In this document: in pieces, positions 2,977 to 48,020 of the stretch
Layout: every line of letters starts with the position of its first letter
Position numbering within the stretch: the first letter of the stretch is position 1
Assembly (NCBI GenBank): GCA_049509995.1
Contig: JBEKZJ010000030.1
Coordinates: 12,088-76,087 of the forward strand
DNA: 64,000 nucleotides
Source of the DNA: Terracidiphilus sp.
GTDB lineage: Bacteria; Acidobacteriota; Terriglobia; Terriglobales; Acidobacteriaceae
Reading direction: 5' to 3'
Notes under the pieces: model-generated
The model's database searches: none
What the model saw: only the letters and a program-made list of their open reading frames with translations
Told to the model about the DNA's origin: nothing
Translations under genes and position numbers: made by a program

Positions 2977-3129
2977 CCCAGGTCTCAAAGGCGAGACCTG
3001 GGCACCCGCTTGGTTGAGGTTCGTGGTTTCCCATCCTTTCGCCAGAAGATAGGCGAAAGGATAGTGCACGGAGCTTTGTGGGTGGGTTTGCGTGTCCCAG
3101 GTCTCAAAATCGAGACCTGGGGCACCCGG
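2977..3129 (+). repeat. Composite intergenic repeat: hairpin H1 - element B - hairpin H1
   Basis: H1 is CCCAGGTCTC-AAAGGC-GAGACCTGGGCACCC at 2977-3007 and recurs at 3096-3127. Element B lies at 3012-3082 and contains the hairpin CCTTTCGCC-N8-GGCGAAAGG. Confidence 0.7.
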
Positions 3130-20853: not shown

Positions 20854-21791
20854 GGCAGGAAGCTCCATTGAACGGGCGGAGGGAGGGAGGGCTCACGCTG
20901 GATGAGGCCTACGCGGCGTGCCGGGCGATTGCCAGGCGCGAGGCGAAGAACTTCTATTATGCGTTTGTGGCGCTGCCCGAGGCGCGGCGCAACGCGATCT
21001 GCGCCATCTATGCTTTCATGCGCCAGGCCGACGATTTGGCCGACGACGAAGGCTTTTCCCTCGAAGAACGGCGCTACCGCCTGGATGCGTGGCTCAAGGC
21101 ATGGCGCGGGGTTTGCGCGGACGGCCGGAGCGATGACCCGGTTTTTGTAGCGGTGCGCGATGCGACGGTGCGGTTTGCGATTCCATTGGGGCTGCTGGAT
21201 GAGCTGGTGGCCGGAGTGACGATGGACCTGAAGCAGGCTGCGACGGATGCGCCGGACACGTACGCGACGTTTGCCGAGTTATACCGTTATTGCTACCTGG
21301 TGGCTTCGGTGGTGGGGCTGGTTTGCATTCGCATCTTTGGTTACACAGACCGCAAGGCGGAGAAACTGGCGGAAGAGACGGGGATTGCTTTCCAGTTGAC
21401 GAACATTCTGCGCGACGTGGCCGAGGATGCGGAGCGAAATCGCGTGTATCTGCCCCTAGAAGATTTGAAAGCTCAAGGGGTTGCGCTGGATTCGCTGCTG
21501 CACCGGGCGCCCGGTGCGGCGCCGACGGCGAATGAGCGGGCGTTGCTCAAAGAAATTGGGCGGCGGGCTGAAACCTATTACCAATCGGCGCAGGCATTGA
21601 TGCCGCTGATCGACACGGAGAGCCGGCCGGCGCTGTGGGTGCTGGTGCGGATCTATCATGCGTTGCTGAAGCGGATTGAGCGGGCGGATTTCGATGTGTT
21701 TTCGCGGCGGGCGAGCGTGCCGATGATGGAGAAGCTGGGAATTCTGGCGGTGGGATTGGCGCGGATGGGGTGGGCGCGGTTGGTTGGGTGA
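20850..21791 (+). CDS. hpnD: Presqualene diphosphate synthase HpnD
   Basis: NFYYAFVALPEARRNAICAIYAFMRQADDLADD motif. 4-nt overlap with hpnC. Confidence 0.85.
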   Translation: MRQEAPLNGRREGGLTLDEAYAACRAIARREAKNFYYAFVALPEARRNAICAIYAFMRQADDLADDEGFSLEERRYRLDAWLKAWRGVCADGRSDDPVFVAVRDATVRFAIPLGLLDELVAGVTMDLKQAATDAPDTYATFAELYRYCYLVASVVGLVCIRIFGYTDRKAEKLAEETGIAFQLTNILRDVAEDAERNRVYLPLEDLKAQGVALDSLLHRAPGAAPTANERALLKEIGRRAETYYQSAQALMPLIDTESRPALWVLVRIYHALLKRIERADFDVFSRRASVPMMEKLGILAVGLARMGWARLVG

Positions 21792-23247
21792 TGGGGAGAC
21801 GTTGAGCGGTTTGGAGCAGACTTCGGGGAGAACCGTCACGGTGGTGGGCGGGGGCGTGGCGGGGATGAGCGCGGCTTGCGCCCTGGCCGAGGAGGGCCTG
21901 CGCGTGCAATTGGTGGAGCGGCGCGGGTATTTGGGCGGACGGGCGAGTTCGTATCTGCATCCGGGAGTAGACGAGGTCATCGATAACTGCCAGCATGTGC
22001 TGTTTGGCTGCTGCACGAACTTGCAGGGATTCTACCGGCGGATCGGGGTTGCGGACCAGATTCACTGGACCAGCGAGATGACGATGATCGAGCCGGGTGG
22101 AAGGCGTTCGCGGCTTGGTCCTTCGTGGCTGCCTGCGCCGCTGCACGGGCTGCCGAAGCTGATGGCAGCCAAGGCCTTCTCGTTTGCTGACAAGTTGGCG
22201 CTGGGGCGGGCGTTTGCGGCGCTGATGCGGCCAGTGCCGGGCAGCTCGACTGAAAGCCTGGGGGATTGGCTGCGGCGGCATAAGCAGACCGAGGGCGCGC
22301 TCAATCGCTTCTGGCGGCTGGTGATTGCGAGCGCGCTCAATGCGGACATCGATTCGATTGCGTTGCCGTATGCGGCGAAGGTGATCCGCGAGTTGTTCAT
22401 GAATTCGGCGTTCGCCGGCAGCATGGGGATGAGTACTGTGCCGCTGAGCGCGCTCTATGCGGGGGCGGCGAGTTTTTTGCGGGAACGCGGCTCGAGCATT
22501 CTGTTCAACACGAGTGTGGAGTCGGCGGGGTGGGATGAGGAGACTTCGCAATGGACAGTGGCTACACGAAGCGGCGCGCTGGCGGCGGAGTTTCTGGTGC
22601 TGGCGCTACCGTTTGAGGCTACGGCCAAGCTGCTGCCGCACATGCCGGCGACCGATGGGTCCGATGCGCTGGCCGCGCAGATTGAACGGCACGAGCATGG
22701 GCCGATTTGCAGCGTGCATCTGTGGTTCGACCGGGAGATTACGGAGTTGGAGCACGCGGTGCTGCTGGACCGGGAGATTCACTGGCTGTACAACAAGAGC
22801 CGGTTGCAACCATGGCGCAAGGACAAGGGGAGTTATGTGGAGCTGGTGGTGAGCGCTTCGCGCGGGTTTGCGCAACTGAGCCGCGAGGAGGCGATTGCGA
22901 AGGCGGTGGGGGAGCTGGGCGAGTTCTTTCCTCAGGTTGCGGCGGCCAGGTTGGAGAAAGCGGTGCTGGTGAAGGAGATGCGGGCTACGTTTGGCGTGTC
23001 GCCGGGGATCGATGCGTCGCGGCCTACGGCTGTCTCGCCGTGGCCGAATTGCTTTCTGGCCGGGGATTGGACGGCGACAGGGTGGCCTTCAACGATGGAG
23101 AGCGCGGCACGGTCGGGGCATCTGGCGGCGGAGGCTGTTTGCGCGAGCATCGGGGGGCCGCGAAGGATTCTGGATGCGGATTTGAGGCCGCGGGGGTTGA
23201 TGCGGTTGGTTGGGACCAGGGACCAGGGACTTAGGGACCAGGATTAG
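21784..23247 (+). CDS. hpnE: Hydroxysqualene dehydroxylase HpnE (FAD amine-oxidase fold)
   Basis: N-terminal FAD motif VTVVGGGVAGMSAACALAEEG. TTG start overlaps the hpnD stop. The C-terminal residues are encoded by GGGACCA heptamer repeats at 23212-23242. Confidence 0.85.
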   Translation: MGDGETLSGLEQTSGRTVTVVGGGVAGMSAACALAEEGLRVQLVERRGYLGGRASSYLHPGVDEVIDNCQHVLFGCCTNLQGFYRRIGVADQIHWTSEMTMIEPGGRRSRLGPSWLPAPLHGLPKLMAAKAFSFADKLALGRAFAALMRPVPGSSTESLGDWLRRHKQTEGALNRFWRLVIASALNADIDSIALPYAAKVIRELFMNSAFAGSMGMSTVPLSALYAGAASFLRERGSSILFNTSVESAGWDEETSQWTVATRSGALAAEFLVLALPFEATAKLLPHMPATDGSDALAAQIERHEHGPICSVHLWFDREITELEHAVLLDREIHWLYNKSRLQPWRKDKGSYVELVVSASRGFAQLSREEAIAKAVGELGEFFPQVAAARLEKAVLVKEMRATFGVSPGIDASRPTAVSPWPNCFLAGDWTATGWPSTMESAARSGHLAAEAVCASIGGPRRILDADLRPRGLMRLVGTRDQGLRDQD

Positions 23248-23639
23248 TGCGCGAGAAAGTAGACGCCGATGCAGACGAGGACGGCGGCGGACCAGCGGCG
23301 GCGGTCTACGTTTTCCTTGAGGAAGATTTTGCCGGCGATGGCGTTGGTGACCAGCGTGAGCGAGGCCGAGGCGGGGGCGACGAGCGAGAGGTTGAGGTGG
23401 TTGAGGGCGAAGAGCAGCGAGAAGAAGGCGAGGGCCAGGAAACTGACGCCGGCAAAGAAGAGCGGACAGGTGAGGACGGCGCGGATGGCGCCTTTCAGGC
23501 CTGAATGGGCGCGAATGTCGTCGAGGTCGCCGAAGGACTTCATGGCGGCGGCGGTGAGGACCTCGCCGGTGGTGGACAAGAGGACGATGGCGGCGATCAT
23601 GGCGGCGGCGGCCCAGGGATTCGGGTAGGGGAGGGTCAT
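23244..23639 (-). CDS. Half-size EamA/DMT-family membrane protein (4 TM)
   Basis: 131 aa with four hydrophobic helices. Its stop codon overlaps the convergent hpnE stop at 23244-23247. Confidence 0.65.
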   Translation of the reverse strand: MTLPYPNPWAAAAMIAAIVLLSTTGEVLTAAAMKSFGDLDDIRAHSGLKGAIRAVLTCPLFFAGVSFLALAFFSLLFALNHLNLSLVAPASASLTLVTNAIAGKIFLKENVDRRRWSAAVLVCIGVYFLAH

Positions 23640-24139
23640 CGCGGCTGGGCCTCTTCCCTGATGGCGCCGGAAACTGCGGGTTCCGGGACTTGGTCGAGCG
23701 GGCCTTCGATGGCGAGGCCACTGGCGACGAGCAGCTTATCGACGGGGCGTTCAGTGAGGGAAGGGCCCTGGGCGACGAAGCTGACGCCGAGGGTGATGAG
23801 GGCAATGCCGGTCCAGCGCTGGATCGAGATGGGCTCTTGGAGCCAGAAGCGGGAGAGCAGGGCGACGATGACGTTGCCGAAGGCGGTGGCGGGGAGAACA
23901 TAGGTGAGATCGGCCCAGGAGAGAGCGGTGAGATAGCTGGCAAAGAAACCGATGAGCAGGGCGATACCGAGGGCGATCCAGGGCGTGAAGACGGCGGCGA
24001 TGAGGGTGGCGGGATGGGCGAGGGAGATGGCCGGCAGGGTGGTCATGCCGCGCGAGAGGCAGGAATCGCCGAGGGGGGCGCAGATGGCGACCAGCAACAG
24101 GATCATGTATTGGCGCGGCGAGAGTCTTGGGTGAGGCAT
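23636..24139 (-). CDS. Half-size EamA/DMT-family membrane protein (4 TM + hydrophilic tail)
   Basis: About 167 aa from ATG 24139. The ORF-track start at 24289 would read through repeat element B. ATGA overlap with the downstream partner at 23636-23639. Confidence 0.6.
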   Translation of the reverse strand: MPHPRLSPRQYMILLLVAICAPLGDSCLSRGMTTLPAISLAHPATLIAAVFTPWIALGIALLIGFFASYLTALSWADLTYVLPATAFGNVIVALLSRFWLQEPISIQRWTGIALITLGVSFVAQGPSLTERPVDKLLVASGLAIEGPLDQVPEPAVSGAIREEAQPR

Positions 24140-24168
24140 TGGCTTCCTGGTCCTGATGAAGGGACGCC

Positions 24169-24239
24169 GGTTGAGGTTCGTGGTTTCCCACCCTTTCGCC
24201 AGTAAAAAGGCGAAAGGATGAGGCACGGAACTCTTGGGG
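24169..24239 (+). repeat. Intergenic repeat element B, copy 2
   Basis: ggttgaggttcgtggtttcccaccctttcgccagtaaaaaggcgaaaggatgaggcacggaactcttgggg. Near-identical to the copy at 3012-3082. Confidence 0.75.
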
Positions 24240-24299
24240 TCGGCCGACGGGGTTGAAAAGTGCAGCGCCGCCCCCGAACGAGCCTTCAACGAGCGGCGA

Positions 24300-25790
24300 T
24301 CAGGCGCCGGCGTTTACGGGGGCAGGCGGATCGGCCTGGTGGCTGCGGGCAACTTTGACCATCTTGTTGCGCTGCGCGCGGAGCTTGAGGAAGGCCTTGG
24401 ACTCGACGTAGAGCCGGGGCAGATCGCGATTCACGAAGGCCTTCCAGACCACGCGGAAAGCGGCCTTGGGGCGGAAGTAGTACTCGTCGTAGAAGCGGTG
24501 GACCATTTCGAGGACGTAGTCGGTGGGCAGGCCGGGATATTCGATGTGGGCCATCTGGTGGCCGCCTTCATCGCTCATCGCCGCTGAATTCACGATGAAA
24601 CCGTTGGCCTTGGCGTAGTCGTAAAACTCGGTGCCGGGGTAGGCGTGGGCGATGGAGACCTGGAGGGTTTCAACGTCCAGCGACTTGGCGAAGTTGATGG
24701 TGTTGCGGATCGATTCCTTGGTTTCTCCGGGCAGGCCGAGGATGAAGTCGCCGTGAACGGTGAGGCCCAGGTCGTGGCAATCCTTGGCGAACTGGCGGGC
24801 GCGCTCGACGGTGGCGCCCTTCTTGATGTTCTTGAGGATCTGGGGGTCGCCGGACTCAAAGCCGACGATGAGCAGGCGGCAGCCGGCCTCCTTCATGGCC
24901 TTGAGGGTGTCGTAGTCGGTGGTGACGCGCGAGGTGCAGCTCCAGGTGAGGTTGAGGGGCTTCAGCTTTTCGCATAACTCGATGGTGCGGACCTTCTGGA
25001 TGTTGAAGGTGTCGTCGTCGAAGAAGAACTCCTTGACCTCGGGGAAGTTTTCCTTCGCCCATTTCAGCTCGGCGGCGACGTCGTCGGTGGATCGCTTGCG
25101 CCAGGCGTGGCCGCTGAGGGTCTGGGGCCAGAGGCAGAAGGTACACTGCGCGGGGCAACCGCGGGTGGAGTAGAGCGCGATGAAGGGATGAAGCAGGAAG
25201 GGGACGTTATAGCGGGTAACGTCCATGTCGCGCTTGTAGATTTTGGTGGCCCAGGGCATGGCGTCGAGGTCTTCGACCTGGGGACGGTCGGGATTGTGGA
25301 GGATCTTGCCGTCGAGCCTGTAGCTGATGCCGAGGATCTCGTTGAGGGGCTTGCCCTGGGCAAACTCGACCACGGAGTAGTCGAACTCGCGGCGGCAGAT
25401 GAAGTCCAGGGCGGCGCACTCGTTGAGGGCGCGTTCCGGGTCGGTGGTGACCGGCGGGCCGACGAAGGCGATGCGGATGGAGGGGTTGGCGGCCTTGATG
25501 GCCACGGCCAGGTGCTGGTCGCTCTTCCAGCCGACGGTGGAGGTGAAGAGGACAAGGAACTCGTAGTCCTTGCAGATCTTGATGGTTTCCGCGGCGGAGA
25601 CGTGGTGCGGGGGCGCATCCAGCAGGCGCGAACCCTCCAGCAGGCCTGCCGGGTAGGCGAGCCAGACGGGGTACCAGTAGGATTCAATCTCGCGCGTTGC
25701 GGGCCAGCGCGAACTCGCGCCACCGTCAAAGTTCTCGAACGAGGGCGGATTCAGTAACAGCGTTTTCAGGGGCATAGGCATCTCTTTCAT
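24300..25790 (-). CDS. hpnJ: Hopanoid biosynthesis radical SAM protein HpnJ (B12-binding class)
   Basis: N-terminus LLLNPPSFENFDGGASSRW and cluster motif CPAQCTFC. The internal ATG at 25775 (MPLKTLLL) may be the true start. Confidence 0.85.
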   Translation of the reverse strand: MKEMPMPLKTLLLNPPSFENFDGGASSRWPATREIESYWYPVWLAYPAGLLEGSRLLDAPPHHVSAAETIKICKDYEFLVLFTSTVGWKSDQHLAVAIKAANPSIRIAFVGPPVTTDPERALNECAALDFICRREFDYSVVEFAQGKPLNEILGISYRLDGKILHNPDRPQVEDLDAMPWATKIYKRDMDVTRYNVPFLLHPFIALYSTRGCPAQCTFCLWPQTLSGHAWRKRSTDDVAAELKWAKENFPEVKEFFFDDDTFNIQKVRTIELCEKLKPLNLTWSCTSRVTTDYDTLKAMKEAGCRLLIVGFESGDPQILKNIKKGATVERARQFAKDCHDLGLTVHGDFILGLPGETKESIRNTINFAKSLDVETLQVSIAHAYPGTEFYDYAKANGFIVNSAAMSDEGGHQMAHIEYPGLPTDYVLEMVHRFYDEYYFRPKAAFRVVWKAFVNRDLPRLYVESKAFLKLRAQRNKMVKVARSHQADPPAPVNAGA

Positions 25791-37074: not shown

Positions 37075-38098
37075 GCTGGAGCTGAGCAGCCTTTATCAAT
37101 TGACGATGGCGCGCTTCAGGCTGATCTGGCGCGAGCCGGAGGCGATTTTCTGGATCTTCATTTTTCCGATTCTGCTGGCGGTGGGGCTCGGGATTGCGTT
37201 CCGCAACCGGCCGGCGGATGTGCTGCAGGTGGGCGCGACGACGGAGCAACTGACGCAGGCGCTCACCCGCGACGAGGGGCTGACAGCGACGACGATGAAT
37301 GAGGAAGACGGCACGCGGGCGCTGGCGACGGGGCGGATTCTGCTGCTGGCGATCCCGAGGGCGGATGGGGTGGCGTACAAGTACGACGACACGAATCCGG
37401 ATGCGCGGACGGCGCGGTTGCTGGTGGATGGGGCGATTCAGACGGCGGCGGGGCGGCGCGAGGCGGTGCGCGCCGAGAACGAGCTGGTGCATGAGACGGG
37501 GGCGCGTTATATCGACTTTGTGGTGCCGGGCCTGCTGGGGATGAATCTGATGGGGTCGGCGATGTGGGGGCTGGGCTTTGCGATCGTGGAGGCCAGGCAA
37601 AAGAAGCTGCTGAAGCGGCTGGTGGCTTCGCCGATGCCGCGCTGGCAGTATCTGGCGTCGTTTCTGCTCTCGAGGCTGGCGATGCTGATCATCGAGGTTG
37701 CGGTGTTTCTGGGGTTTGCGCGGGTGGCGTTTGGAGTGCCGTTTCGCGGGTCGGTGTGGGAGCTGGGATTGCTCTGCGTGCTGACTTCGCTGGCGTTTTC
37801 CGCTCTGGGGCTGCTGGTGTCGTCGCGGGCCAGGACGATGGAAGCGGCTTCGGGATTGATGAACCTGGTGATGCTCCCGATGTGGATCTTGTCGGGAGTG
37901 TTCTTTTCGGCGACGCGGTTTCCCGCGGTGATTCAGCCGCTGGTGCGGGCGCTGCCGCTGACGGCGGCGATCGATGCGCTGCGCGGGAATATGCTGCAAG
38001 GGATGAACCTGGGACAGCTCATTGCGCAAGTGGGCATCCTGCTGGCGTGGTTCGTGGTTCCGTTTGCGGTTTCTCTGCGCATCTTCCGGTGGAGATAG
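37067..38098 (+). CDS. ABC-2 type transporter permease
   Basis: 343 aa: an N-terminal TM segment, a large loop, then five or six TM segments. 8-nt overlap with the ATPase gene. Confidence 0.8.
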   Translation: MNKLELSSLYQLTMARFRLIWREPEAIFWIFIFPILLAVGLGIAFRNRPADVLQVGATTEQLTQALTRDEGLTATTMNEEDGTRALATGRILLLAIPRADGVAYKYDDTNPDARTARLLVDGAIQTAAGRREAVRAENELVHETGARYIDFVVPGLLGMNLMGSAMWGLGFAIVEARQKKLLKRLVASPMPRWQYLASFLLSRLAMLIIEVAVFLGFARVAFGVPFRGSVWELGLLCVLTSLAFSALGLLVSSRARTMEAASGLMNLVMLPMWILSGVFFSATRFPAVIQPLVRALPLTAAIDALRGNMLQGMNLGQLIAQVGILLAWFVVPFAVSLRIFRWR

Positions 38099-38666
38099 CG
38101 GAAGATGAAGGCGAGTCGAGTGGAGTTAGAGCGTCCGATTCAAGAAAGTCCCGGCCGAGCATAGCTCTCCTATCGGCAGTTACCCATGGCCTTCCCATAC
38201 TGGGTCAAGGAGGCAGCCTCTGTGAGTACGGAGCGAGCCTTGCGGAGGGGTGCGTGCGGTTGCGCGGGATTAACAGAGGGCAGTCTTGCCAATGGGGCGG
38301 GGCAGTCATCACGAAAGTTGTGTGATCGGACGCACATCCCAAACCTGCCTATCAGTGTCAAAGTCCACACGGACATTTTTTTCGGGGAGATGGCTGCGCC
38401 AAAAGCGCTGCGCCTAAAGGTGTAGTGTGCTTATTGGCCAGCCACGGGAGATGCAAACAGCGAATTCCCTTTTCTTTTTGTTTTTTCTGCGGAGAAATGG
38501 TCCAGAAACAGAGGAAGGGTCGGCTCATGTCTCCCTCTCAATCCCGCAACCTCAAACCCTACACACAGCTGCTGCGCCACTGGTCTGCGGATGGTGGCGA
38601 TGGCTCTCGGCCCCCGTGGTTTTCACTGAAGCGAGCAGCCGGCCAAGGGGAGCCTGGAGAGGAGAA

Positions 38667-39209
38667 ATGATGCAGAATGTCGCCGAGGAAGTTCCCGATG
38701 CCCGTGAAAGGTTGCTGATAGACCATGTGATCGCCCAGCACGAGGGCCGTCCCGGAGCACTGCTGGGAATTCTTGAATCGGTTCAGTCCGCCAATGCGCA
38801 TAAATTCCTGTCGATGGGGTCGTTACGCTACATCGCGGAGAAAACAGGGATTCCTCCGGCAAGAATCTATAGCGCCGCGACCTTCTATGCGCTGTTCAAC
38901 CTCGATCCGCAAGGCGATAACGTGGTCTGCGTCTGCCGCGGGACGGCCTGCCACACCAGGGGTTCTCGCGATCTGTTGCAAAAGCTGTGCCTGGGCCTGG
39001 GGCTGATCGGACAGGATCTGAGCGAGACCAACGATGCCGACAAGCTGGCGCTGACTACACCGGACCGGAAGTTCACCGTTCGCACGGTTGCCTGCTTCGG
39101 CCAGTGCGCGCTGGCGCCAGTGGTTGAAGTGAACCACCACATTCTGAGCCACGTGAATGAACGCACGCTGCAACGGGAAGTGAAAGCACTGAAGCAGGGG
39201 AGGCAGTGA
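38667..39209 (+). CDS. NuoE/HoxE-type [2Fe-2S] thioredoxin-fold subunit
   Basis: Cluster ligands CRGTAC (Cx4C) and CFGQC (Cx3C). ATG 38667 follows SD GGAGAGGAG. The ORF-track start at 38427 adds a non-coding-looking leader. Confidence 0.85.
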   Translation: MMQNVAEEVPDARERLLIDHVIAQHEGRPGALLGILESVQSANAHKFLSMGSLRYIAEKTGIPPARIYSAATFYALFNLDPQGDNVVCVCRGTACHTRGSRDLLQKLCLGLGLIGQDLSETNDADKLALTTPDRKFTVRTVACFGQCALAPVVEVNHHILSHVNERTLQREVKALKQGRQ

Positions 39210-42200
39210 TGCCGCGAATTCAGGACATTGGGGCGTTCAACGCGGTACGGGAATCCGGGCTGGCCAAACTGCTGCCGGCCATTCCGCGGGTTGCAGTGGG
39301 GATGGGGACCTGCGGACGCGGCAATGGCGCGGAAGAGGTGTATCACGCCTTGAATGAGGCGATCGAACGCAGTGGGCAGGAGGTGCTGCTCGTGCCGGTG
39401 GGCTGCTTTGGCGCCTGTTTTCAGGAGCCGCTGGTAAGCGTCCGGCTGCCAGGAGCTCCGCTGGTGATGCTGCGGCGCGTACACGCCAACGATGCCACGC
39501 GCATCCTGGAGAGCCTTTTCAACCATGGAATGCCGCCTGATCTCATTTACTGCAAGCTCGAGGAATGGGATCACATTACGGGGCATTTGAAATACGGCCA
39601 GGATTATCCCGATGTGGCGCCGTGGGACGCGATTCCATTCTTCAAGGGACAAAAGAAGATTGTTCTGCGGAATTGCGGGCTGATCAGTCCCGAGGACATT
39701 GAAGAATACTTCGCAGTTGGCGGGTACCAGGCCCTCTACAAGGTGCTGATCGACGGACGCGGGGAAAGCGTGATTGAACAGATCAAGGCATCGCGGCTGC
39801 GCGGGCGGGGCGGGGCGGGCTTCCTGACCGGCAACAAGTGGGATTTTCTTGCCAAGGCCAAAGCAGATGCCAAGTACATTGTGTGCAACGCCGATGAGGG
39901 CGATCCCGGCGCCTACATGAATCGGAATGAGATCGAAGGCGATCCTCATTCTCTGCTGGAGGGCATGATCATAGGCGCTTACGTGATGGGGGCGACCGAG
40001 GGCATCGTGTATGTGCGGGCCGAGTATCCCCTGGCGGTGCGGCGGTTGAGCCGCGCCATCGAACAGGCGCGCGAATACGGGCTGCTGGGCAAGAACATCC
40101 TGGACCGCGGATTCAACTTCGATATCGAACTGGTGCAGGGAGCGGGGGCGTTTGTGTGCGGCGAGGAAACGGCCCTGATCGCTTCGCTGGAGGGCTTTGC
40201 CGGCAGGCCGCATCCCCGCCCGCCGTTTCCGGCGCAAAAAGGATTGTGGGGCAAGCCCACCAACATCAACAACGTGGAAACCTGGTGCAATGTTGCCCCG
40301 ATCGTAAGCCGGGGTCCGGCATGGTTCACGGAGACGGGCAGCGTGAAGAGTCCGGGGACCAAGGTTTTTTCGCTGGTGGGCAAGATCCAGAACACGGGGC
40401 TGGTGGAGATGCCGCTGGGCACTCCGCTGCGGAACTTCATCTATGACATCGGAGAAGGAGCGATAGCCGGACGCCGCGTGAAGGCAGTGCAAACAGGAGG
40501 GCCCTCCGGGGGATGCATACCCGTGGAGATGCTGGACACGCCCGTGGACTACGAGAGCCTGGCGCATATTGGCTCCATCATGGGTTCGGGCGGCATGGTA
40601 GTGATGGACGAAGACAACTGCATGGTGGATGTGGCGCGCTATTTCGTCGAGTTCACGCATTCGGAGTCCTGCGGCAAGTGCGTGCCGTGCAGGGTGGGAC
40701 TGGACAAGGCGCTCCGCGTCCTGAATTTGATCACCGAAGGAAGCGGAACCTCGGAGCACCTGAACCGGCTGGATGAGCTGGGGCGGATGATCCGCGAATG
40801 CTCTCTCTGCGGGCTGGGGCAGACGGCGCCGAATCCGGTGCTGACCACCATCCGCCACTTCCGCGAGGAGTATGAAGACCACATCATGGCCCGGCGATGC
40901 CGCGCCGGGGTGTGCCAGGAACTGGCGCTGTCTCCCTGTGAAAACAGTTGCCCGCTGCGGATGAACATTCCGCGTTTTCTGGAACTTTACCAGGAGGGCC
41001 GGCTCGAAGACGCATTCGAATCCGTCATCCTCGACAATCCACTGCCCGCGTCGACGGGGAGAGTTTGCCAGCACCCGTGCGACAACCGCTGCCGCCGGCA
41101 GTCGTTCGATGAGGTTGTCAACATGCGCGAAGTGCATCGCTTCATCGCGGACGCGATCTATCAATCCGATCGCTTTGAGGCGATGGTGGAGCGGGTCGTG
41201 GCGCACAAGCTGGAGCCCACAGGGCACAAGGTTGCCGTGGCCGGCGCCGGCCCGACGGGCCTGACGGCCGCGTTCTATCTGGCCTTGCTGGGGCACGACG
41301 TGACGATCTTCGAGGAGCGCGGCGAGGCGGGCGGGATGCTTCGCTTCGCCATTCCGGAGTACCGGCTGCCCAAGGCCGTGCTGCGGCGCGAACTGGAACT
41401 GATCGAGAGAACCGGCGTGAAGATGGTGTTCAACACCAGGGTGGGATTCGATCTTCCGCTGAACGAAATGGCAAGCCAGTTCGATGCGGTGTTTCTCTCC
41501 ATCGGCACGTGGAAGGAATCCTGGCTCTACCTTCCCGGGACGGAGTTGAAGGGCGTCTATCCGGCTCTGCCGTTCCTGGAATCCGTGGCCAAGCAGGAGA
41601 AGGTGCGTTCCGGTTTCAGAGTTGCGGTGATTGGCGGCGGCAACGCGGCCATCGATTCGGCGCGCACCATGCTGCGCAAGGGCGCCGCGGTAACCATCCT
41701 CTACCGGCGCGAACGCAACGACATGCCCGCAATCGACGAGGAGATTCAGGCGGCCGAGGACGAAGGCGTGCGGTTTGAGTTTCTAGCCGCGCCGCACCGT
41801 ATTCTAGGCGATGCCGATGGGAATGTGAAGGCCATCGAGATGGTGAAAACGCGGCTGGGAGAATACGATAAATCGGGGCGCAAGCGGCCGATTCCCACCG
41901 ACGAGGTGCAGCGCTTTGCATGCGACAGCGTGATCCTTGCCGTGGGCGAGACGTTCGATCTGGACTTCTGCCGCGCGTCCGGCCTGGAGCTCAAAGAGGA
42001 AGGCACGATCGTGGTGGATCGCCTCTCGCTGGAGACCAGCCGGCCTGGTTTCTATGCAGGCGGCGACGTGATTACCGGCGCATCGAACGTATCCAACGCC
42101 ATGGGCGGGGGCAAGCAGGCGGCGCAAAAGATCGATGAGCGCCTGATGGGCGGAGGACGCTGGAAACGGCTCTTTCCGCAGTTCGAATATAGCCGCCAGG

Positions 42201-42370
42201 CGCCGGGAGAACCGAGCCTTAGCCGCCGCCACACGGCTCACGCCGTGCCCGCGGAGGTTCGGGTTCGCTCGCAGGAGGAAGTGGTTGCCGGCCTCGACGC
42301 GAAAGAGGCGCTGGAGGAAAGCCGCCGTTGCCTTCGTTGCGATCTGCGAGCCGCTGTGATTGCCGATTGA
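39209..42370 (+). CDS. Fusion protein: NuoF/HoxF/HydB-type FMN/NADH/[4Fe-4S] module + GltD/NfnB-type FAD/NADPH module
   Basis: NuoF part: GRGGAGFLTGNKW, CNADEGDPGAYMNR, ESCGKCVPCR, CGLGQTAPNP. GltD part, from about nt 40930: CENSCP...CQHPCDNRCRR, GAGPTGLTAA, GGGNAAIDSA...YRR. The start overlaps the stop of the NuoE-like gene. Confidence 0.85.
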   Translation: MPRIQDIGAFNAVRESGLAKLLPAIPRVAVGMGTCGRGNGAEEVYHALNEAIERSGQEVLLVPVGCFGACFQEPLVSVRLPGAPLVMLRRVHANDATRILESLFNHGMPPDLIYCKLEEWDHITGHLKYGQDYPDVAPWDAIPFFKGQKKIVLRNCGLISPEDIEEYFAVGGYQALYKVLIDGRGESVIEQIKASRLRGRGGAGFLTGNKWDFLAKAKADAKYIVCNADEGDPGAYMNRNEIEGDPHSLLEGMIIGAYVMGATEGIVYVRAEYPLAVRRLSRAIEQAREYGLLGKNILDRGFNFDIELVQGAGAFVCGEETALIASLEGFAGRPHPRPPFPAQKGLWGKPTNINNVETWCNVAPIVSRGPAWFTETGSVKSPGTKVFSLVGKIQNTGLVEMPLGTPLRNFIYDIGEGAIAGRRVKAVQTGGPSGGCIPVEMLDTPVDYESLAHIGSIMGSGGMVVMDEDNCMVDVARYFVEFTHSESCGKCVPCRVGLDKALRVLNLITEGSGTSEHLNRLDELGRMIRECSLCGLGQTAPNPVLTTIRHFREEYEDHIMARRCRAGVCQELALSPCENSCPLRMNIPRFLELYQEGRLEDAFESVILDNPLPASTGRVCQHPCDNRCRRQSFDEVVNMREVHRFIADAIYQSDRFEAMVERVVAHKLEPTGHKVAVAGAGPTGLTAAFYLALLGHDVTIFEERGEAGGMLRFAIPEYRLPKAVLRRELELIERTGVKMVFNTRVGFDLPLNEMASQFDAVFLSIGTWKESWLYLPGTELKGVYPALPFLESVAKQEKVRSGFRVAVIGGGNAAIDSARTMLRKGAAVTILYRRERNDMPAIDEEIQAAEDEGVRFEFLAAPHRILGDADGNVKAIEMVKTRLGEYDKSGRKRPIPTDEVQRFACDSVILAVGETFDLDFCRASGLELKEEGTIVVDRLSLETSRPGFYAGGDVITGASNVSNAMGGGKQAAQKIDERLMGGGRWKRLFPQFEYSRQAPGEPSLSRRHTAHAVPAEVRVRSQEEVVAGLDAKEALEESRRCLRCDLRAAVIAD

Positions 42371-42385
42371 GAAAGGAGCGCCGCA

Positions 42386-43114
42386 TTGCCGACCAAAACG
42401 ATTTCCGTCCGAATTGATGGCGAATTAGTGACCGCGCAGGAAGGGCAGTCGATTCTGGAAGCGGCCCGCGCCAACGGGAAGCAGATTCCGACGCTCTGCT
42501 ATCTGAAGGGACTGAGCGCGGTGGGAGCCTGCCGGGTGTGCATTGTGGAGCTGGCGGGCACCGACCGGCTGCTCCCGGCCTGCACAACTCCCATCCAGGA
42601 GGGCATGTCGATCAAGACCACCTCGGCCAAGCTCACGCTCTACCGGCAGATGGCGGTCGAGTTGTTGCTGGTGGAGCGCAACCACATCTGCTCGGCATGC
42701 GTATCCAACAGTCATTGTGAGCTGCAGGCGCTGGCGCAATCGCTGGGCGTCACCCATGTGCGCTACTCCTACAACAATCCGCGCGTGCAGGTGGATATGA
42801 CCCACCCTCGCTTCGTCCTCGATCACAACCGGTGCATCCTGTGTACGCGCTGCGTGCGGGTGTGCGCTGAAGTGGAAGGAGCGAATGTGTGGGAGGTTGC
42901 ATCGCGCGGCATCTATTCCCGCATCGTCAGCGATCTGAGGGAGGATTGGGGGCAAACGCGGAACTGCACCGGCTGCGGCAAGTGCGTGCAGGCGTGCCCT
43001 ACAGGAGCGCTTGCGGAGAAGGGCTTTTCAGTCCACGAAATGGTGAAGCAGAGCGATGGGGTCACCCGGTTGGCGCTGCAGAGAGCGCACCAAGCGGGCA
43101 GTCCTTTCCGGTAA
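42386..43114 (+). CDS. HoxU / NuoG-N-terminal-type poly-FeS subunit ([2Fe-2S] + [4Fe-4S] clusters)
   Basis: CYLKGLSAVGACRVC, NHICSACVSNSHC, CILCTRCVRVC and CTGCGKCVQACP. TTG start 7 nt after SD AAGGAG. Confidence 0.8.
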   Translation: MPTKTISVRIDGELVTAQEGQSILEAARANGKQIPTLCYLKGLSAVGACRVCIVELAGTDRLLPACTTPIQEGMSIKTTSAKLTLYRQMAVELLLVERNHICSACVSNSHCELQALAQSLGVTHVRYSYNNPRVQVDMTHPRFVLDHNRCILCTRCVRVCAEVEGANVWEVASRGIYSRIVSDLREDWGQTRNCTGCGKCVQACPTGALAEKGFSVHEMVKQSDGVTRLALQRAHQAGSPFR

Positions 43115-43473
43115 GAGGCTACTGCTTTGCCCCTGGCGCGGAGTTTCGATCGGCCGTCTCCGCGCCTGGCCTGGGAAGAGCGGAAGGCCCGGGCCTTGCG
43201 CAGCGCGGCTTTCAGCCCGCTTCGGCCATTTGTTGGACCGCCGGTTCCAGATGACTCCATGGTCTTTGTCGAGATAACATGAACGCTCGCAACCAATGCT
43301 GAGTGGCAATCGAGAGTTTATTCTGCACTCAGCAAGTTCCAGAGAGGACCCGGATGAGACTCTCTTTGATTTGCATTCATCTACTGGGCGTCAACTAGGA
43401 ACGCGGAGCGTCGGAAACGTCGCGGAGCATTCGCGGCATGCGCCATGGGTCGCGCACGAAACTGGGGGGTAAC

Positions 43474-44004
43474 ATGTTCACAAAGTCAGGACACCAACTT
43501 GTACGACGGGCGATCATAACAGTTGGCATACTTCTCTTTGGGCCGTTTGGCTCTGGCCAGAAGGATTACCAAACTTGGCGACGTCCTGAGGTCCAGGTGC
43601 CAATCTCTCTCGCGGTTGGTACTGTGCGGACCCCTCCATTTCACGTCAAGAAAGCGCGCTATGCCGTCATCATCCAGGTAGCAAAGCGGCTTCCTTTCGA
43701 TAATCTAAAGTGCATGATAGGCGCACCTGTGTGGCGAGGCGAGGTCACCCACTGCAGCGGGGACAGTCTTCTTCAGGCGGAGTGGACACTACTAAGCGAA
43801 GATAGGCACGTTGTAGCTCAAGGCTCCGCCCCCGGGGGGACAAGTTTTGTATTTCTAAGTGACTATTTGCTCAAATACATCGGCAACTTTAAGGGGGAGC
43901 CCGGCAAGACTTATACCCTCGAGGTCAAGTTTACGAAAGACGGTTCTCCACTCAACGTATGCGATCCTCAATTGATCGTCATGCGAGCCGGAGCGTTTGA
44001 CTAA
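43474..44004 (+). CDS. Hypothetical protein with N-terminal hydrophobic anchor/signal
   Basis: About 176 aa from ATG 43474 (MFTKSGHQLVRRAIITVGILLFGPFGSG). AT-richer than neighbouring genes. No motif recognised. Confidence 0.45.
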   Translation: MFTKSGHQLVRRAIITVGILLFGPFGSGQKDYQTWRRPEVQVPISLAVGTVRTPPFHVKKARYAVIIQVAKRLPFDNLKCMIGAPVWRGEVTHCSGDSLLQAEWTLLSEDRHVVAQGSAPGGTSFVFLSDYLLKYIGNFKGEPGKTYTLEVKFTKDGSPLNVCDPQLIVMRAGAFD

Positions 44005-44266: not shown

Positions 44267-44299
44267 CCGGCAGGCGGGCAACTCATGCCCGCCTGCCGG
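44267..44299. terminator. Perfect 14-bp hairpin between convergent genes (putative bidirectional terminator)
   Basis: CCGGCAGGCGGGCA-ACTCA-TGCCCGCCTGCCGG, followed by TTTG on the plus strand. Lies 12 nt from the TonB-receptor stop. Confidence 0.5.
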
Positions 44300-44311: not shown

Positions 44312-47300
44312 TCAGAATGTAAACTTCGACCCGAACTGGAACTGACGCGGGGTGTTGGAGGTGCTGTAAATCTGGCCGAAATTCACATAGCCGGAGGATG
44401 GCGAGGATACATTCGGCGCTGAAAACTGCGCCTTGTTGGTGACGTTGTAGGAAGAGATCTCGAAACGCAGCTCTCTCTCTTTTCCGATCGTGAAGCTCTT
44501 GAACAGAGACAGGTCCAGCTCCTGGGCGCCCATGGTGCGGACGTTGTCGAGGAATTCCGGCGCTGTTCCTGGGACAAAAGGGCTGGCCGGGGTGGTGAAG
44601 CAGGTGGGAGTGAACCACTCCGTCGCCGTATGGGGCGCGCCCTTGCTGGGATTGCAGGCCATGTTGGTGCGCTGATTGAAGTAACCGAACGGCGCGCCCA
44701 CGACCGGCGCGGCGATGGGAACGCCATCGCTGAGATAGACAACTCCATTGGCTGTCCAGTTGCCCAGGATAGCATTGCTCACGCCGTTGAGATCCAGCGC
44801 GCGGCCCTTGCCCATGGGCAGATCGTAGGACACCTGCGAGGTGAATTGGAACTTCACTTCCTGAGGGCTTACCGAGTGCTCGAAGTTCATGTTCTTCCAG
44901 TCCTGTGGCGAACCATTGTGGAAGCCGACAAACCCCAGCGGAGGCTGGCTGTCGTCGGTGATCAGCTTGGCCCAGGTGAACGAGGTCAGGGTCGTGAAGT
45001 GCTGGGTCAGGCGTTTCTGCAGCTTGGTCTGCAGGGAGCTGTACTCAGAGTCGCCGCCTGGATAGCCATGGATGGCGACGCCGCTGCCGCAGCAAGCTCC
45101 GCCGCTGCCGAACTGCGGAAACTGCTGCAGCGACACCCACAGCGGCACGGTGGCCTGACCATAATAGAAGTTTGTCGATGGCTGAATGACCGCCCACTGA
45201 TTAGGCACCATGGTGTTGACCAGTGCTGTCTGGTATTTTGCGATGGCGCCTAGATCGAGCTGGTTCAGATCTTCTGAGCCCAGCGGCAGAAACAGGCCTC
45301 GGCTGCCCACATAGCCGGCGCTGAGCGTGAAGCCATGCGAGAAGTTGATCTCCCAGCCCAGGTTGAAGTTGTAGGTGGTCTGGGTGCGCTGGGAGTGGAA
45401 CATGGTGCTCAGCGGGGAGCCAAGGTCGGTGGCCAATCCCTGCGACGAGCCGATGATTTGTGTGACGCCCGCCGGGAACGGATTGCTGAGCGAGTAGGGG
45501 CCCGTGGGGCTGGGCGCGGGGCCCCCGGGCGAACCTGGATCCAGGCTGCTCCCGTAGAGTACCGAATTGCCCAGGTTGGTGCCGCCGTTGAATGGGTTTG
45601 TATTCCCATCCTTGTTCCAGCTGGTGGCATTCCAGTTGGTCGAAGACGAGAAGCCGTCGCTGTTCTCTCCGACGCCGCTGACCATTTGCGCGCTGGGGCC
45701 ATAGTAGAAGCCCGCGCCGCCGTGGACGACGAGGTTCTTGCCCGGCTGCCAGGCAAAGCCCAGGCGGGGACCGAAGTTGGTCAGGTTGGTGGTAAAGGGA
45801 GAGCGGTTGCCGCTGCTGGCGAAGACCTCGCCACCGGTATACGAGACGCCGTTGGTCGAGCCCTGCGCCGTTGGATCGAAGTACTCCAGGCGGTTGTGGC
45901 GCTCCGTCTTGCCGCCAAAGATATCCCAGCGAACTCCCGCGGTGATGGTCAGCGACGGGCTCAGATGGTAGGTGTCCTGAATGAAGGTGGCGTAGTAGGG
46001 GCTGGATTCGGCGACGAACAAATCCTTGGTGAAGTTGCCGCCTTCACTTCCCGGCGACGTTCCCATGCCCATCAGGAACGAGGCAAAGTCGCTGCCTCCC
46101 ACGGGCGAGGCTGCGCCGGTGGTCTGGTCGGTGGCGGAAAAGTCGAAGTAGTAGTTGCCGGAGGGTGAGCCCGGCTGGCCCACGTTCATGAAGCGCTTCA
46201 TGTACTCGAAGCCGGCGCCGATCTCGTGCTTGCCCTTCACCTTGGTGAGGCTGGCAATGGCGTCGCTGTTCTCGCTGGCGAACTGGAAGGTGTTATCGCA
46301 GCAGGTGCCGCCGATGGCCCCGCCCACGTCGTTGAAATTCATCAGGGGAAGGTTTTTGTAGACTTGCTGCGCGGCCAGCGAGGAGGGAAATCCCAGGGTG
46401 GTGATGTCGAACCCATTTTGCGCAGGGTCGCCTCCCTGGTTCTCATAGTGGCGCGTGAAGGAGTAGCGCAGTTGCAGGACCGTGGTCGGGTTCAGGGTCA
46501 GGTCGTCCCCGACGATCACATTGCGCGCATTGGTCACGTTCTGGGCGTAGTCCGGATCCCACATGTTGCCGAAGGCGTTGAAGGTCGCGTTCAGCGTCCG
46601 GGTAAAGGAGAAGCGGCCAAAGATACGCTGCATCTCGCTCTTGTAGTAGTCCATGCGAATGTCGAACTTATGCCCGGTGGTCGGGTCCAGGCCGGGAAGA
46701 TAGAGGTTATTGATGGCGCCGTACGGGGACGCGGCCGTGGCTGCTTCGCAGGTGCTGGGGCTGGGCTGGTTGCATTTGGGGAACATGGAGAGATATTTCA
46801 ACGCGGCGGGATTGGGGTTGGCGATCTTGTTGCCGGCCAGCGGCTGACGCGTTCCGGCCAGCGGCCCGGTGGCGACGTCGGGCTGGGTGGGGTCGTAGAT
46901 GGTGTAGTTGTCGGCCGAAAAATCGCCCGTCCGCTCCGCGGTGGTGGGAACAGAGAAGTAGTTTGATCCGTCAAACAGCTGCTGCTGCGTGGCTTCATAA
47001 TCGCCAAAGAAGAACAGTTTCTTGTGCAGGATGGGCCCGCTGATGGAACCGCCTTCCTGGTAACGATGAAAACTGGGCGGCGTGTTGGCGGCGCCGCTGG
47101 CCAACTGGCTTTGCTTGTTGAACCAATCGTTGGCCGCCAGAATGTCGGGCCGGAAGATGCCGAAGGCGTCGCCATGGAATGAGTCGCCGCCGGATTTGCT
47201 CACCAGGCTGATGACCCCCGCGCCGCCGCTCTGGTAGGAAACCGGGGTATTTTGCGTCTCGACACGATACTCGTCCACGCCATCCTCGGGAATCTCGGAC

Positions 47301-47992
47301 ATGGGCATGATGGCGGCGATATTGTTTTCGGCAATGCCCAGGGGGCTGCCGTCGAGCATGTAATAAACCGAGCCGACGACGGCGCCGTTGATGCTGTAGG
47401 ACGACACATCGATTCCCGGGCGCCCGCTCGAGATGTTGATGATGGCCTCGGAATTGGAGGAGTTGGGCGAGCCGTTGGCCGGGCTGACGCCGGCGCTCAG
47501 TTGCACCAGATCGTAGACGTTGCGCGAAAAGAGCGGAACGCGATCGATGGTTTCGGCGCCGATCAGCTGACCGACCGTCGAGTTGTTGGTGTCAATGATC
47601 TCCGCGCTGCTTGAAACGGTCACTACCTCGTTGATGCTTCCCACCTGCAGCGCGATGTTGAGGGCGGTGACCTGGTCGACGCTGACCGTGACGTTATCCT
47701 GGGCGACAGCCTCAAAGCCCTTCGAACTGGCCGTAACCCGATAGCTGCCCGGGTTGAGGGAGACGAAGGAATAGAATCCGGCCCCGGTGCTCACCGTCGA
47801 CTGGGAGACTCCGGTGGCGTGGTCGAGCGCGGTCACCCTGGCCCCTGGTACGACGGCGCCGGTGGGGTCGGTGACGGTGCCGTTGATGCCGCCGCGGCCG
47901 GCCTGGGCCCAGGCGGCTGTTCCGGCCGCCAGGAGAAGCATCCAGATACAGAGGAAAATGCGCAGGAACGAGGTAGTTGCTTTGGTGTTCAT
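44312..47992 (-). CDS. TonB-dependent outer-membrane receptor with N-terminal CarboxypepD_reg-like domain
   Basis: Signal peptide and the GGINGTVTDPTGAVVPGARV...SYRVTASSKGF domain. The roughly 1200-aa barrel ends in SKFTF. ATG 47992 is preferred over the ORF-track TTG at 48007. Confidence 0.85.
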   Translation of the reverse strand: MNTKATTSFLRIFLCIWMLLLAAGTAAWAQAGRGGINGTVTDPTGAVVPGARVTALDHATGVSQSTVSTGAGFYSFVSLNPGSYRVTASSKGFEAVAQDNVTVSVDQVTALNIALQVGSINEVVTVSSSAEIIDTNNSTVGQLIGAETIDRVPLFSRNVYDLVQLSAGVSPANGSPNSSNSEAIINISSGRPGIDVSSYSINGAVVGSVYYMLDGSPLGIAENNIAAIMPMSEIPEDGVDEYRVETQNTPVSYQSGGAGVISLVSKSGGDSFHGDAFGIFRPDILAANDWFNKQSQLASGAANTPPSFHRYQEGGSISGPILHKKLFFFGDYEATQQQLFDGSNYFSVPTTAERTGDFSADNYTIYDPTQPDVATGPLAGTRQPLAGNKIANPNPAALKYLSMFPKCNQPSPSTCEAATAASPYGAINNLYLPGLDPTTGHKFDIRMDYYKSEMQRIFGRFSFTRTLNATFNAFGNMWDPDYAQNVTNARNVIVGDDLTLNPTTVLQLRYSFTRHYENQGGDPAQNGFDITTLGFPSSLAAQQVYKNLPLMNFNDVGGAIGGTCCDNTFQFASENSDAIASLTKVKGKHEIGAGFEYMKRFMNVGQPGSPSGNYYFDFSATDQTTGAASPVGGSDFASFLMGMGTSPGSEGGNFTKDLFVAESSPYYATFIQDTYHLSPSLTITAGVRWDIFGGKTERHNRLEYFDPTAQGSTNGVSYTGGEVFASSGNRSPFTTNLTNFGPRLGFAWQPGKNLVVHGGAGFYYGPSAQMVSGVGENSDGFSSSTNWNATSWNKDGNTNPFNGGTNLGNSVLYGSSLDPGSPGGPAPSPTGPYSLSNPFPAGVTQIIGSSQGLATDLGSPLSTMFHSQRTQTTYNFNLGWEINFSHGFTLSAGYVGSRGLFLPLGSEDLNQLDLGAIAKYQTALVNTMVPNQWAVIQPSTNFYYGQATVPLWVSLQQFPQFGSGGACCGSGVAIHGYPGGDSEYSSLQTKLQKRLTQHFTTLTSFTWAKLITDDSQPPLGFVGFHNGSPQDWKNMNFEHSVSPQEVKFQFTSQVSYDLPMGKGRALDLNGVSNAILGNWTANGVVYLSDGVPIAAPVVGAPFGYFNQRTNMACNPSKGAPHTATEWFTPTCFTTPASPFVPGTAPEFLDNVRTMGAQELDLSLFKSFTIGKERELRFEISSYNVTNKAQFSAPNVSSPSSGYVNFGQIYSTSNTPRQFQFGSKFTF

Positions 47993-48020
47993 TTTGGCCA
48001 TCTCCAATCAAATTGTTGAC

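Follow-up and report, generated by a model that had tools for sequence, protein, structure and literature searches.

A NuoE/NuoF::GltD/HoxU-type gene trio in Terracidiphilus: the diaphorase module of a widespread hydrogenase subtype, detached from its hydrogen-activating subunits

Three co-directional, tightly coupled open reading frames (ORFs) occupy positions 38667-43114 of the + strand in a 64,000-nucleotide stretch of Terracidiphilus sp. DNA (contig JBEKZJ010000030.1), the whole of which we call the window. Together they encode a soluble three-subunit iron-sulfur flavoprotein: a hoxE/hydC/nuoE-like gene is followed by a gene that fuses a NuoF-type module to a GltD/NfnB-type module, and then by a hoxU-type gene. 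A first-pass annotation had described the trio in these terms, as a NuoE-type, a NuoF::GltD (~1053 amino acids (aa)) and a HoxU-type protein, and coordinates, Pfam, NCBIfam and motifs confirm it. Comparison with related loci identifies the trio as the electron-input/output ('diaphorase') module of a widespread hydrogenase subtype, in which HoxE, HoxF::GltD and HoxU are joined by HoxYH or in which HydA takes the third place. In the window's lineage this module has been detached from the hydrogen-activating subunits, and the orphan state is shown to be derived and selected. To judge from its predicted cofactor sites, the complex probably shuttles electrons among NADH, NADPH and one further partner.

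Relatives of the fusion were found in at least 598 species-level loci in a GTDB scan that used one genome per species. Going by record titles, the lineages represented include Acidobacteriota, Bacteroidota, Spirochaetota, Omnitrophota, Verrucomicrobiota, Chloroflexota, Proteobacteria and Hydrogenedentota. The order E - F::GltD - U is kept in every related locus that spans it, and because the three genes are syntenic wherever a locus covers them, the trio is not a chance arrangement of ORFs. The best 120 matches in the protein database are 1041-1061 aa long, except for one of 1022 aa, with 97-100% query cover and 83-97% identity; most are unlabelled or called 'NADH-quinone oxidoreductase subunit F', and Terriglobia account for the few organism names that appear.

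We classified 80 of the loci by what accompanies the trio; 65 proved classifiable and 15 were too short, an orphan call requiring at least 2 kb of sequence downstream of the trio. Genes for HoxY and HoxH directly follow hoxU in 35 of the 65, and HoxH in these loci carries both RxCGxC and DPCxxCxxH. In another 15 the third gene encodes a full [FeFe] HydA of 583-643 aa with the TSCCPxW motif. The one HydA tested, from locus L045, passes the NCBIfam model NF040763 ('NADH-dependent [FeFe] hydrogenase, group A6') with 876 bits against a cut-off of 765; the HydDB rule would place the [FeFe]-linked relatives in group A3 because NuoF is present. The trio is part of a hydrogenase, then, in 50 of 65 classifiable loci and an orphan in 15. 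With the HoxH of a linked locus (L013 type) as the query, a fused F gene was found upstream in 78 of the best 80 loci. The published peat metagenome-assembled genome (MAG) SbA1 carries the fused form, annotated as hoxEFYH, and these genes were published as up-regulated in anoxic, butyrate-amended microcosms. The first-pass annotation had presented the trio as an orphan and had itself named adjacent hoxYH in orthologous loci as the observation that would speak against this. For the family as a whole that observation holds; the orphan status stands for the window and its own clade.

In the window, tblastn searches with HoxY, HoxH and the group-4 large subunit gave zero matches across the 64 kb, and the [NiFe] and [FeFe] signature motifs occur in no ORF. 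The third gene lacks the TSCCPxW (H-cluster) motif. A formate dehydrogenase gene is also absent from the window, so that the missing hydrogenase or formate dehydrogenase partner reported at first pass is borne out. There is no NfnS-type ORF within or beside the operon, and no ferredoxin gene is linked to the trio. A search for pseudogenes downstream of hoxU found no hoxY or hoxH remnants, either here or at the orphan loci, and none of the best 80 loci listed for L013-type HoxH is an unlinked copy in an orphan-clade genome.

The 15 orphans all come from Terracidiphilus-like Acidobacteriaceae and are at least 79% identical to the window's fusion protein. The hoxYH-linked loci reach at most 76%, save L008 (83%), which is of a relinked type discussed below. 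A neighbour-joining tree with canonical HoxF as its root recovers the orphans as a monophyletic clade that branches from inside the hoxYH-linked clade; the HydA-linked clade falls outside. The ratio of nonsynonymous to synonymous substitution rates (dN/dS) within the orphan clade is 0.05-0.15 for all three genes (0.06-0.15 for hoxE, 0.07-0.12 for hoxU) at dS values of 0.6-1.6. The motifs of the NuoF half are kept in 15 orphan-clade sequences, a few of which have single substitutions at non-ligand positions, and in linked relatives; those of the GltD half are kept in the same 15, some of which have conservative non-ligand substitutions. Given these low dN/dS values and the conservation of the cofactor motifs, the orphan genes are functional and not decaying. 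The orphan operons lie in unrelated neighbourhoods, and no flank synteny was found between the window and its closest loci; the neighbouring genes therefore say nothing about function.

These data also bear on a very improbable explanation, namely that the trio works with a different partner whose genes lie elsewhere, for example a formate dehydrogenase or a group-4 [NiFe]-like complex, or that it is a decaying remnant without function. The remnant is excluded by the dN/dS range and by the ligands conserved across the orphan clade. As to the partner, a group-4-type gene lies 6-7 kb from orphan trios in L007 (2202-3284), L011 (221-1420) and L012 (~1990-3070), and directly upstream of or beside hox operons in L008 (1-723), L116 (312-1391), L141 (1291-2370) and L161 (380-1459), which would speak for such a link. 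However, in the orphan loci this gene runs on the opposite strand, the linkage is inconsistent, and the window has no such gene. The gene itself, seen in several Terracidiphilus-like genomes, encodes a 360-aa NuoD/group-4-type [NiFe] large subunit with the motifs RVCGICS and DPCYSCTDR.

Some hydrogenase-linked loci show unusual catalytic genes. In a Hydrogenedentota MAG (L056:4157-8909), two [NiFe] small/large pairs lie upstream, not downstream, of the fused trio; identity to L013-type HoxH is 57% for one of them, and the other is a distant relative (26%). At L021:14540-15905, hoxH is broken after codon 37 by ~1.4 kb that holds opposite-strand IS110-like transposase ORFs, and hoxH is split by frameshifts in L029, L053, L066 and L070. 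These broken genes could be snapshots of catalytic-gene loss, that is, pseudogenes, or they could be long-read sequencing errors.

The first gene of the window's trio (38667-39209, +; 180 aa) encodes a thioredoxin-like [2Fe-2S] subunit, the equivalent of cluster C1 of Bfu enzymes. It matches Pfam 2Fe-2S_thioredx (PF01257) with an E value of 8e-35 and carries CxxxxC and CxxxC motifs. Its best NCBIfam match is the HoxE model NF005747, at 105.3 bits and so below the cut-off of 224, and its best relatives of solved structure are StnA (9bov_C), HydC (8a6t_C) and 7t2r_C. The third gene (42386-43114, +; 242 aa) has a TTG start 15 nt past the stop of the second and scores above the cut-off of the HoxU equivalog NF005745 (342.3 bits vs 333). 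Its product contains Fer2_4, NADH-G_4Fe-4S_3 and Fer4 (dicluster) domains, with sites for one [2Fe-2S] and three [4Fe-4S] clusters, and no Pyr_redox domain. Its C-terminal tail, AEKGFSVHEMVK...RLA, is of the 'fused-operon' type. The closest solved relative is the NiFe-HydA of Acetomicrobium mobile (7t2r_A, 205 bits); SH HoxU, from the NAD-reducing hydrogenase 5XF9 (5xf9_B), follows at 130 bits.

The second gene (39209-42370, +; 1053 aa), identified by Pfam, NCBIfam and motifs, begins with an ATG that overlaps the TGA of the first (TGATG). Pfam domains along the protein are Complex1_51K (residues 192-363), NADH_4Fe-4S (474-558), Fer4_20 (560-652) and Pyr_redox_2 (674-968); NCBIfam gives a nuoF-family match at 161-559 and GltD/NfnB-type matches at ~529-1047. 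Pfam, alignment with solved structures and motifs define a HoxF/HydB/BfuB-type module in residues 1-572 (39209-40924, +). Its motifs comprise RGRGGAGF for flavin mononucleotide (FMN), CNADEGDPGAYM for NADH, a conserved CNADEGDPGA, an SLBB domain with GGPSG, CGKCVPC...C for the [4Fe-4S] cluster B1, and a terminal RRCxxxxC. Of the four Cys expected in the N-terminal thioredoxin-like domain three are present, as in NfnB of Caldicellulosiruptor saccharolyticus (Csac), in which zinc is bound at the matching site (PMC11829005). The best solved relative of this half is the A. mobile NiFe-HydB (7t2r_B), with 645 bits over residues 28-572 aligned on 8-539 of 597, followed by Csac NfnB (9n5u_B) and StnB of Sporomusa ovata.

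The alignments to HydB, NfnB and StnB run to about residue 526-539 of 584-602, a position directly after the conserved CxxxxC. At the point where the Bfu chains go on to a C-terminal domain with two [4Fe-4S] clusters (B3/B4), the window's protein starts its GltD/NfnB-type module (residues 573-1053; 40925-42370, +), defined by Fer4_20, Pyr_redox_2 and motifs. The Cys ligands for two [4Fe-4S] clusters are PCxxxCP, CxxxCxxxC and a C-terminal RCLRC, the CxxC having been permuted to the C-terminus as in StnC. GAGPTGLTAA (679-688) marks the flavin adenine dinucleotide (FAD) site, and GGGNAAIDSA (809-818) with YRR (832-834) the NADPH site. The closest solved relatives are StnC (9bov_A 102-567, 359 bits), NfnA (9n5u_A 104-502, 336 bits) and NfnI-L (5jca_L, 323 bits). 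The key cofactor ligands are thus present on alignment, and the best solved relatives of all parts are Bfu enzymes, in agreement with the Bfu/Stn kinship proposed at first pass.

Kinship is not membership, however. The definition of the Bfu family (BfuABC; Schut et al. 2022, Li et al. 2025) includes the BfuB C-terminal 2x[4Fe-4S] domain, with B3/B4 as the low-potential exit to ferredoxin (PMC9304861). By cryo-electron microscopy, the mobile C1 cluster delivers the low-potential electron to this domain, which hands it to ferredoxin (PMC11829005). Gene 2 supplies the BfuB-type Nuo51 FMN/NADH domain, SLBB and the B1 cluster, gene 1 the single [2Fe-2S] C1 subunit (BfuC), and HoxU the [2Fe-2S] and 4Fe-4S ferredoxin-type domains of BfuA. 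The C-terminal domain (IPR017896) is absent, the only Fer4-type match in gene 2 being Fer4_20, and the trio is therefore outside Bfu as defined; for the same reason the published Bfu census excludes the fusion family. The first-pass suggestion of a possible Bfu/Stn-like enzyme falls short on this point, and bifurcating transhydrogenase activity stays conjecture.

Whether the trio might nonetheless bifurcate can be weighed against the same structures. The minimal bifurcation site is B1-FMN-C1 (PMC11829005), which is intact by sequence here, and Bfu enzymes, Stn/NfnABC included, provide the closest solved homologues for each of the three subunits and for the GltD module. A true Bfu-type bifurcating transhydrogenase, the stronger of the first-pass readings, would use this site to couple NADH, NADPH and ferredoxin as in Stn/NfnABC, with the NADPH module on the B subunit. 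We regard this as improbable. The B3/B4 domain is missing and the GltD module stands in its place, so that NADP(H) would sit on the 'low-potential' branch and Nfn-like ferredoxin coupling would not be expected in the same way; the lack of a linked ferredoxin gene also speaks against it. Losey et al. proposed three residue signatures for bifurcating beta subunits (A..M, F and GGPSG; PMC7311640). All three are present in the fused protein, but canonical HoxF has them too, and they are therefore not diagnostic here; we rejected them as evidence for bifurcation.

One close comparison is the A. mobile HydABCSL complex, an electron-bifurcating [NiFe] hydrogenase of the Bfu family (7T2R), which provides the nearest solved structure for the NuoF half and for HoxU and a top match for HoxE, and which shares the FMN, NADH, B1 and C1 sites. 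Related fused loci likewise feed a group-3 [NiFe] small/large pair. In contrast, A. mobile HydB has the ferredoxin B3/B4 domain where the window's protein has the GltD FAD/NADPH module, HydA has 692 aa compared with 242 for HoxU, and the window contains no HydSL/HoxYH genes. The Stn/NfnABC transhydrogenases (S. ovata, 8OH5/9BOV; Csac, 9N5U) use the same four blocks, which are NuoE-, NuoF-, NuoG-N-terminal- and GltD/NfnB-like. They resemble the trio in having a GltD/NfnB-like FAD-NADPH module in the complex, one that is nearest to StnC/NfnA down to the C-terminally permuted RCLxC, and in lacking a hydrogenase or formate dehydrogenase domain. The topology differs. In Stn it is the NuoG-like StnC that carries the fused GltD-like module (PMC7483475), as the first-pass annotation had correctly stated. 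There the module is inserted in a large A subunit of ~960-1180 aa, and BfuB keeps its ferredoxin-reducing C-terminal domain (PMC7483475, PMC11829005); in the trio the module replaces that domain on the B subunit, and the A-type subunit is a minimal 242-aa HoxU. Because the GltD module is on the other subunit, the trio lies outside Stn/NfnABC.

The HoxEFU proteins of group 3d bidirectional [NiFe] hydrogenases (cyanobacteria, Terracidiphilus) share the E-F-U order and a HoxU that passes the model, and orthologues are followed by hoxYH. Canonical HoxF, by contrast, ends just past the CxxxxC and has four Cys in its N-terminal domain, the HoxU tail differs, and in the window hoxY and hoxH do not accompany the diaphorase genes. 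With its HoxF extended and its HoxE under the model cut-off, the trio is outside canonical Hox. It also lacks the small NfnA/S partner of NfnSL (FNR-like, with [2Fe-2S], FAD and an NADH site), although the GltD half itself resembles NfnI-L, and it lacks the H-cluster domain that the third subunit of trimeric [FeFe] hydrogenases (HydABC, group A3) contains. In sum, the trio is homologous to Bfu/Stn complexes and to HoxEFU, would work in a like manner, and is a member of neither as defined.

A HydB with a glutamate-synthase domain has been reported from archaeal group F hybrid [FeFe]/[NiFe] hydrogenases (Cell 2024, PMC11216029). This is again a NuoF-like diaphorase subunit with a glutamate-synthase-type domain in a hydrogenase operon, where a second-acceptor site was proposed (PMC11216029). 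It differs in belonging to a five-subunit hybrid complex, studied by modelling, and in not being an orphan; we liken it to the window's family by description. It is the sole NuoF-GltD or HoxF-GltD fusion that we found in the open-access literature, and an earlier description elsewhere is possible. With this case, the SbA1 operon and the at least 598 species-level loci, the first-pass impression of a topology not yet described does not fully hold, the topology being neither rare nor entirely new to the literature, and the fusion family is under-described rather than unknown. In the literature searched we found no biochemical study of a HoxF/HydB::GltD fusion (open-access sources) and no mention of an orphan, separately regulated form.

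The orphan operons have a regulatory region of their own. At 38309-38336 (+), 346 nt ahead of the ATG of hoxE, stands an operator-like palindrome, TCAC-N8-TGTGA-N6-GCACA. The window contains no second match, and 0 would be expected from shuffled sequence. TCAC-N7/8-TGTGA-N6-GCACA also stands upstream of hoxE in 20 further orphan-clade loci (L001-L006, L009, L010, L012, L020, L030, L039, L042, L063, L078, L079, L081-L084). The distance to hoxE is 211-514 nt in the window and 19 of the 20, and ~1.8 kb in L084. None of the hoxYH-linked or relinked loci has the palindrome, and ~160 other loci gave one stray match. A conserved block, TCAAtgTTCC..GGACA..TCT..GGGGAGAAG, follows it. The half-sites resemble those of CRP/FNR- or Rex-type regulators. 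This putative, clade-specific operator would most likely control expression of the trio. In L084, a close relative (87% identity) on a 3.55-Mb contig, a 459-aa flavoprotein gene (8029-9408; Pfam Pyr_redox_2) lies between the palindrome (7646-7672) and hoxE; by eye we take its product to be adrenodoxin-reductase/FprA-like.

The 5' leader (38337-38666, +) varies in length and is patchily conserved among the orphan loci in an alignment of their upstream regions. It may contain a 47-codon upstream ORF at 38527-38670 (MSPSQSRNLKPYTQ...) whose stop overlaps the start codon of hoxE. The region around the start of this ORF, ATGTCGCCCTCTC, shows weak conservation in L001-L004, L009 and L042, and the leader is much shorter in other orphan loci. 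Positions 38050-38720 matched no Rfam family, and a promoter/terminator scan found no sigma-70-like + strand site upstream and nothing above shuffle expectation. A sigma-54 promoter reading of the GGCACA half-site was rejected for want of a TTGC element at the right spacing.

Canonical hox operons occur in the same group of organisms. When the HoxH beside the trio in L008 was used as the query, the best 80 loci came from Terracidiphilus/Acidobacteriaceae. A full canonical hoxE-hoxF-hoxU-hoxY-hoxH was present in 69 of them, 5 end at a contig edge before hoxE and 3 show a partial operon. The unfused HoxF of these operons is ~530 aa long and ~51% identical to the NuoF half. At least four assemblies (JBEKHZ01, CAWJDN01, CAVZDT01 and JBEKDB01) hold both an orphan trio and canonical hoxEFUYH, and in JBEKHZ01 the two operons share one contig, ~120 kb apart. 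Soil Acidobacteria of this lineage are usually regarded as aerobes. The first-pass view of the hosts as plain aerobic heterotrophs needs amending, since sister genomes with orphan trios are not hydrogenase-free.

A second link between the two systems comes from three genomes, L085-L087, to which L008 corresponds. Here an orphan-type trio directly precedes a canonical-type HoxYH, and the F proteins nest inside the orphan clade of the tree. HoxU in these loci is chimeric: residues 1 to ~205 are of the orphan type (75-92% identical to the window), and the last ~35 residues, past CGKCVQxCPTGAL, are 81% identical to canonical HoxU and 36% to the window. The DNA 1 kb upstream of hoxE (L086:1-1010) and all DNA downstream of hoxH is 83-90% identical to canonical loci. 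Given the chimeric HoxU, with the junction inside hoxU, and the canonical flanks, recombination exchanged canonical hoxEFU in situ for an orphan-type cassette. In these recombinants the canonical tail of HoxU went together with canonical HoxYH.

These findings raise the possibility that the orphan trio acts in trans as an alternative diaphorase. It would combine with HoxYH from the canonical operon into a second, NADPH-capable version of the bidirectional [NiFe] hydrogenase, made under conditions that the clade-specific operator sets. The co-occurrence of both operons would allow this, the replacement in L085-L087 shows that the module is compatible with HoxYH of the canonical type, and HoxU and its tail are conserved in the orphans. 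Nevertheless, we consider the proposal rather unlikely. The canonical operon already provides HoxEFU in stoichiometric amounts, and co-occurrence was seen in 4 of 15 verified orphan genomes, a lower bound. The orphan operons are unlinked to hox genes and, by their upstream sequences, appear to be separately regulated. Moreover, the in-situ recombinant has the canonical rather than the orphan-type HoxU tail, and docking may for that reason need the canonical tail.

We therefore return to a function independent of hydrogenase, in which the trio would balance NADH and NADPH as a transhydrogenase or diaphorase, possibly with ferredoxin or flavodoxin reacting at HoxU. We put the probability of this reading, which draws on predicted sites, somewhat below one half (about 0.45). 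NAD(H) would react at the FMN of the HoxF half, beside the [4Fe-4S] cluster B1 and the [2Fe-2S] cluster C1 of HoxE, whereas the GltD half would accept NADP(H) at its FAD. The pair of GltD [4Fe-4S] clusters would occupy the position of the ferredoxin-reducing C-terminal domain of Bfu enzymes, and the FMN and FAD sites would be connected via C1 and these clusters. The four HoxU clusters could form a third wire to the protein surface, a port for ferredoxin or flavodoxin. In linked operons, such an arrangement would give a hydrogenase in contact with NAD(H) and NADP(H) alike; the orphan operon would encode no partner for the third branch. Isolated Synechocystis HoxEFU catalyses reactions of this kind, a precedent for a hydrogenase-independent role. 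Support for independence comes from the canonical hoxEFUYH of the same genomes, which encodes its own full diaphorase, from the recombinant trio, which took over the canonical HoxU tail when joined to canonical HoxYH, and from the palindrome and leader, which are absent from hydrogenase-linked operons. The additional flavoprotein gene of L084, placed under the same palindrome, points the same way.

The evidence that separates this reading from action in trans is thin, and several points weigh against an independent role. The in-situ replacement of canonical hoxEFU by a cassette of this type shows that the module is still able to work with a hydrogenase. Genes for HoxYH are present elsewhere in at least 4 of the 15 verified orphan genomes, and the window's own genome was viewed within the 64-kb stretch only. 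HoxU and its tail are still constrained, which would fit a persisting protein partner, for example HoxY; the ratio of tail to core identity is 0.70 in the orphans and 0.80 in hoxYH-linked loci, a small difference. Finally, NADPH specificity of the GltD half is read solely from its GxGxxA...YRR motif. A bolder version of the hydrogenase-independent proposal, to which we would give only a small chance, is a three-port enzyme under its own operator, in which the flavobicluster couples NADH and the NADPH of the GltD module with ferredoxin or flavodoxin on HoxU. This would be a new bifurcating/confurcating transhydrogenase architecture derived from a hydrogenase diaphorase.

The remaining features of the window lie outside the trio. 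Downstream, the first-pass description of non-coding sequence, an AT-richer orphan ORF, a perfect hairpin and a convergent outer-membrane gene is accurate in each element. The 1.2-kb gap 3' of hoxU has a GC content of 0.56, compared with 0.61-0.63, and contains a 188-aa ORF (43438-44004) with an N-terminal hydrophobic stretch; it has no Pfam or NCBIfam match and no counterpart among 80 related loci. A CarboxypepD_reg/beta-barrel outer-membrane protein is encoded at 44312-48007 (-), convergent with the trio. The perfect 13-bp inverted repeat at 44267-44299 (CCGGCAGGCGGGC / GCCCGCCTGCCGG, 7-nt loop) is 12 nt away from this gene's stop and most likely serves as its terminator. Other neighbouring ORFs are unrelated to the trio: an ABC-2 transporter, ispG, an MFS transporter, a LacI-family regulator, a GH2 enzyme and hopanoid genes. 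The hopanoid-type set at 19822-25790 comprises two squalene/phytoene synthase-family genes, an amine-oxidase-type flavoprotein and a B12-binding radical SAM gene; with the CarboxypepD_reg barrel, it fits an origin in the Acidobacteriaceae.

Taken by itself, the window offers something more modest, a conserved orphan redox module. Its wider meaning is that a large subtype of soluble hydrogenases can be recognized by the HoxF/HydB::GltD fusion, which automatic annotation calls 'NuoF'. If NADP(H) indeed replaces ferredoxin at the position of the C-terminal domain, these enzymes would link H2, NADH and NADPH directly, which would bear on redox balance in fermenters and soil bacteria. Greater weight would attach to the finding if NADP(H) stood in for ferredoxin in a Bfu-type mechanism or if a hydrogenase-independent function proved true. 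The window's lineage amounts to a natural experiment: the module has been kept without hydrogenase subunits, has a putative regulatory site of its own, and on at least one occasion has returned by exchange to a place before hydrogenase genes. It can therefore be tested directly whether HoxEFU-type diaphorases act on their own, as has long been suspected for the cyanobacterial HoxEFU.

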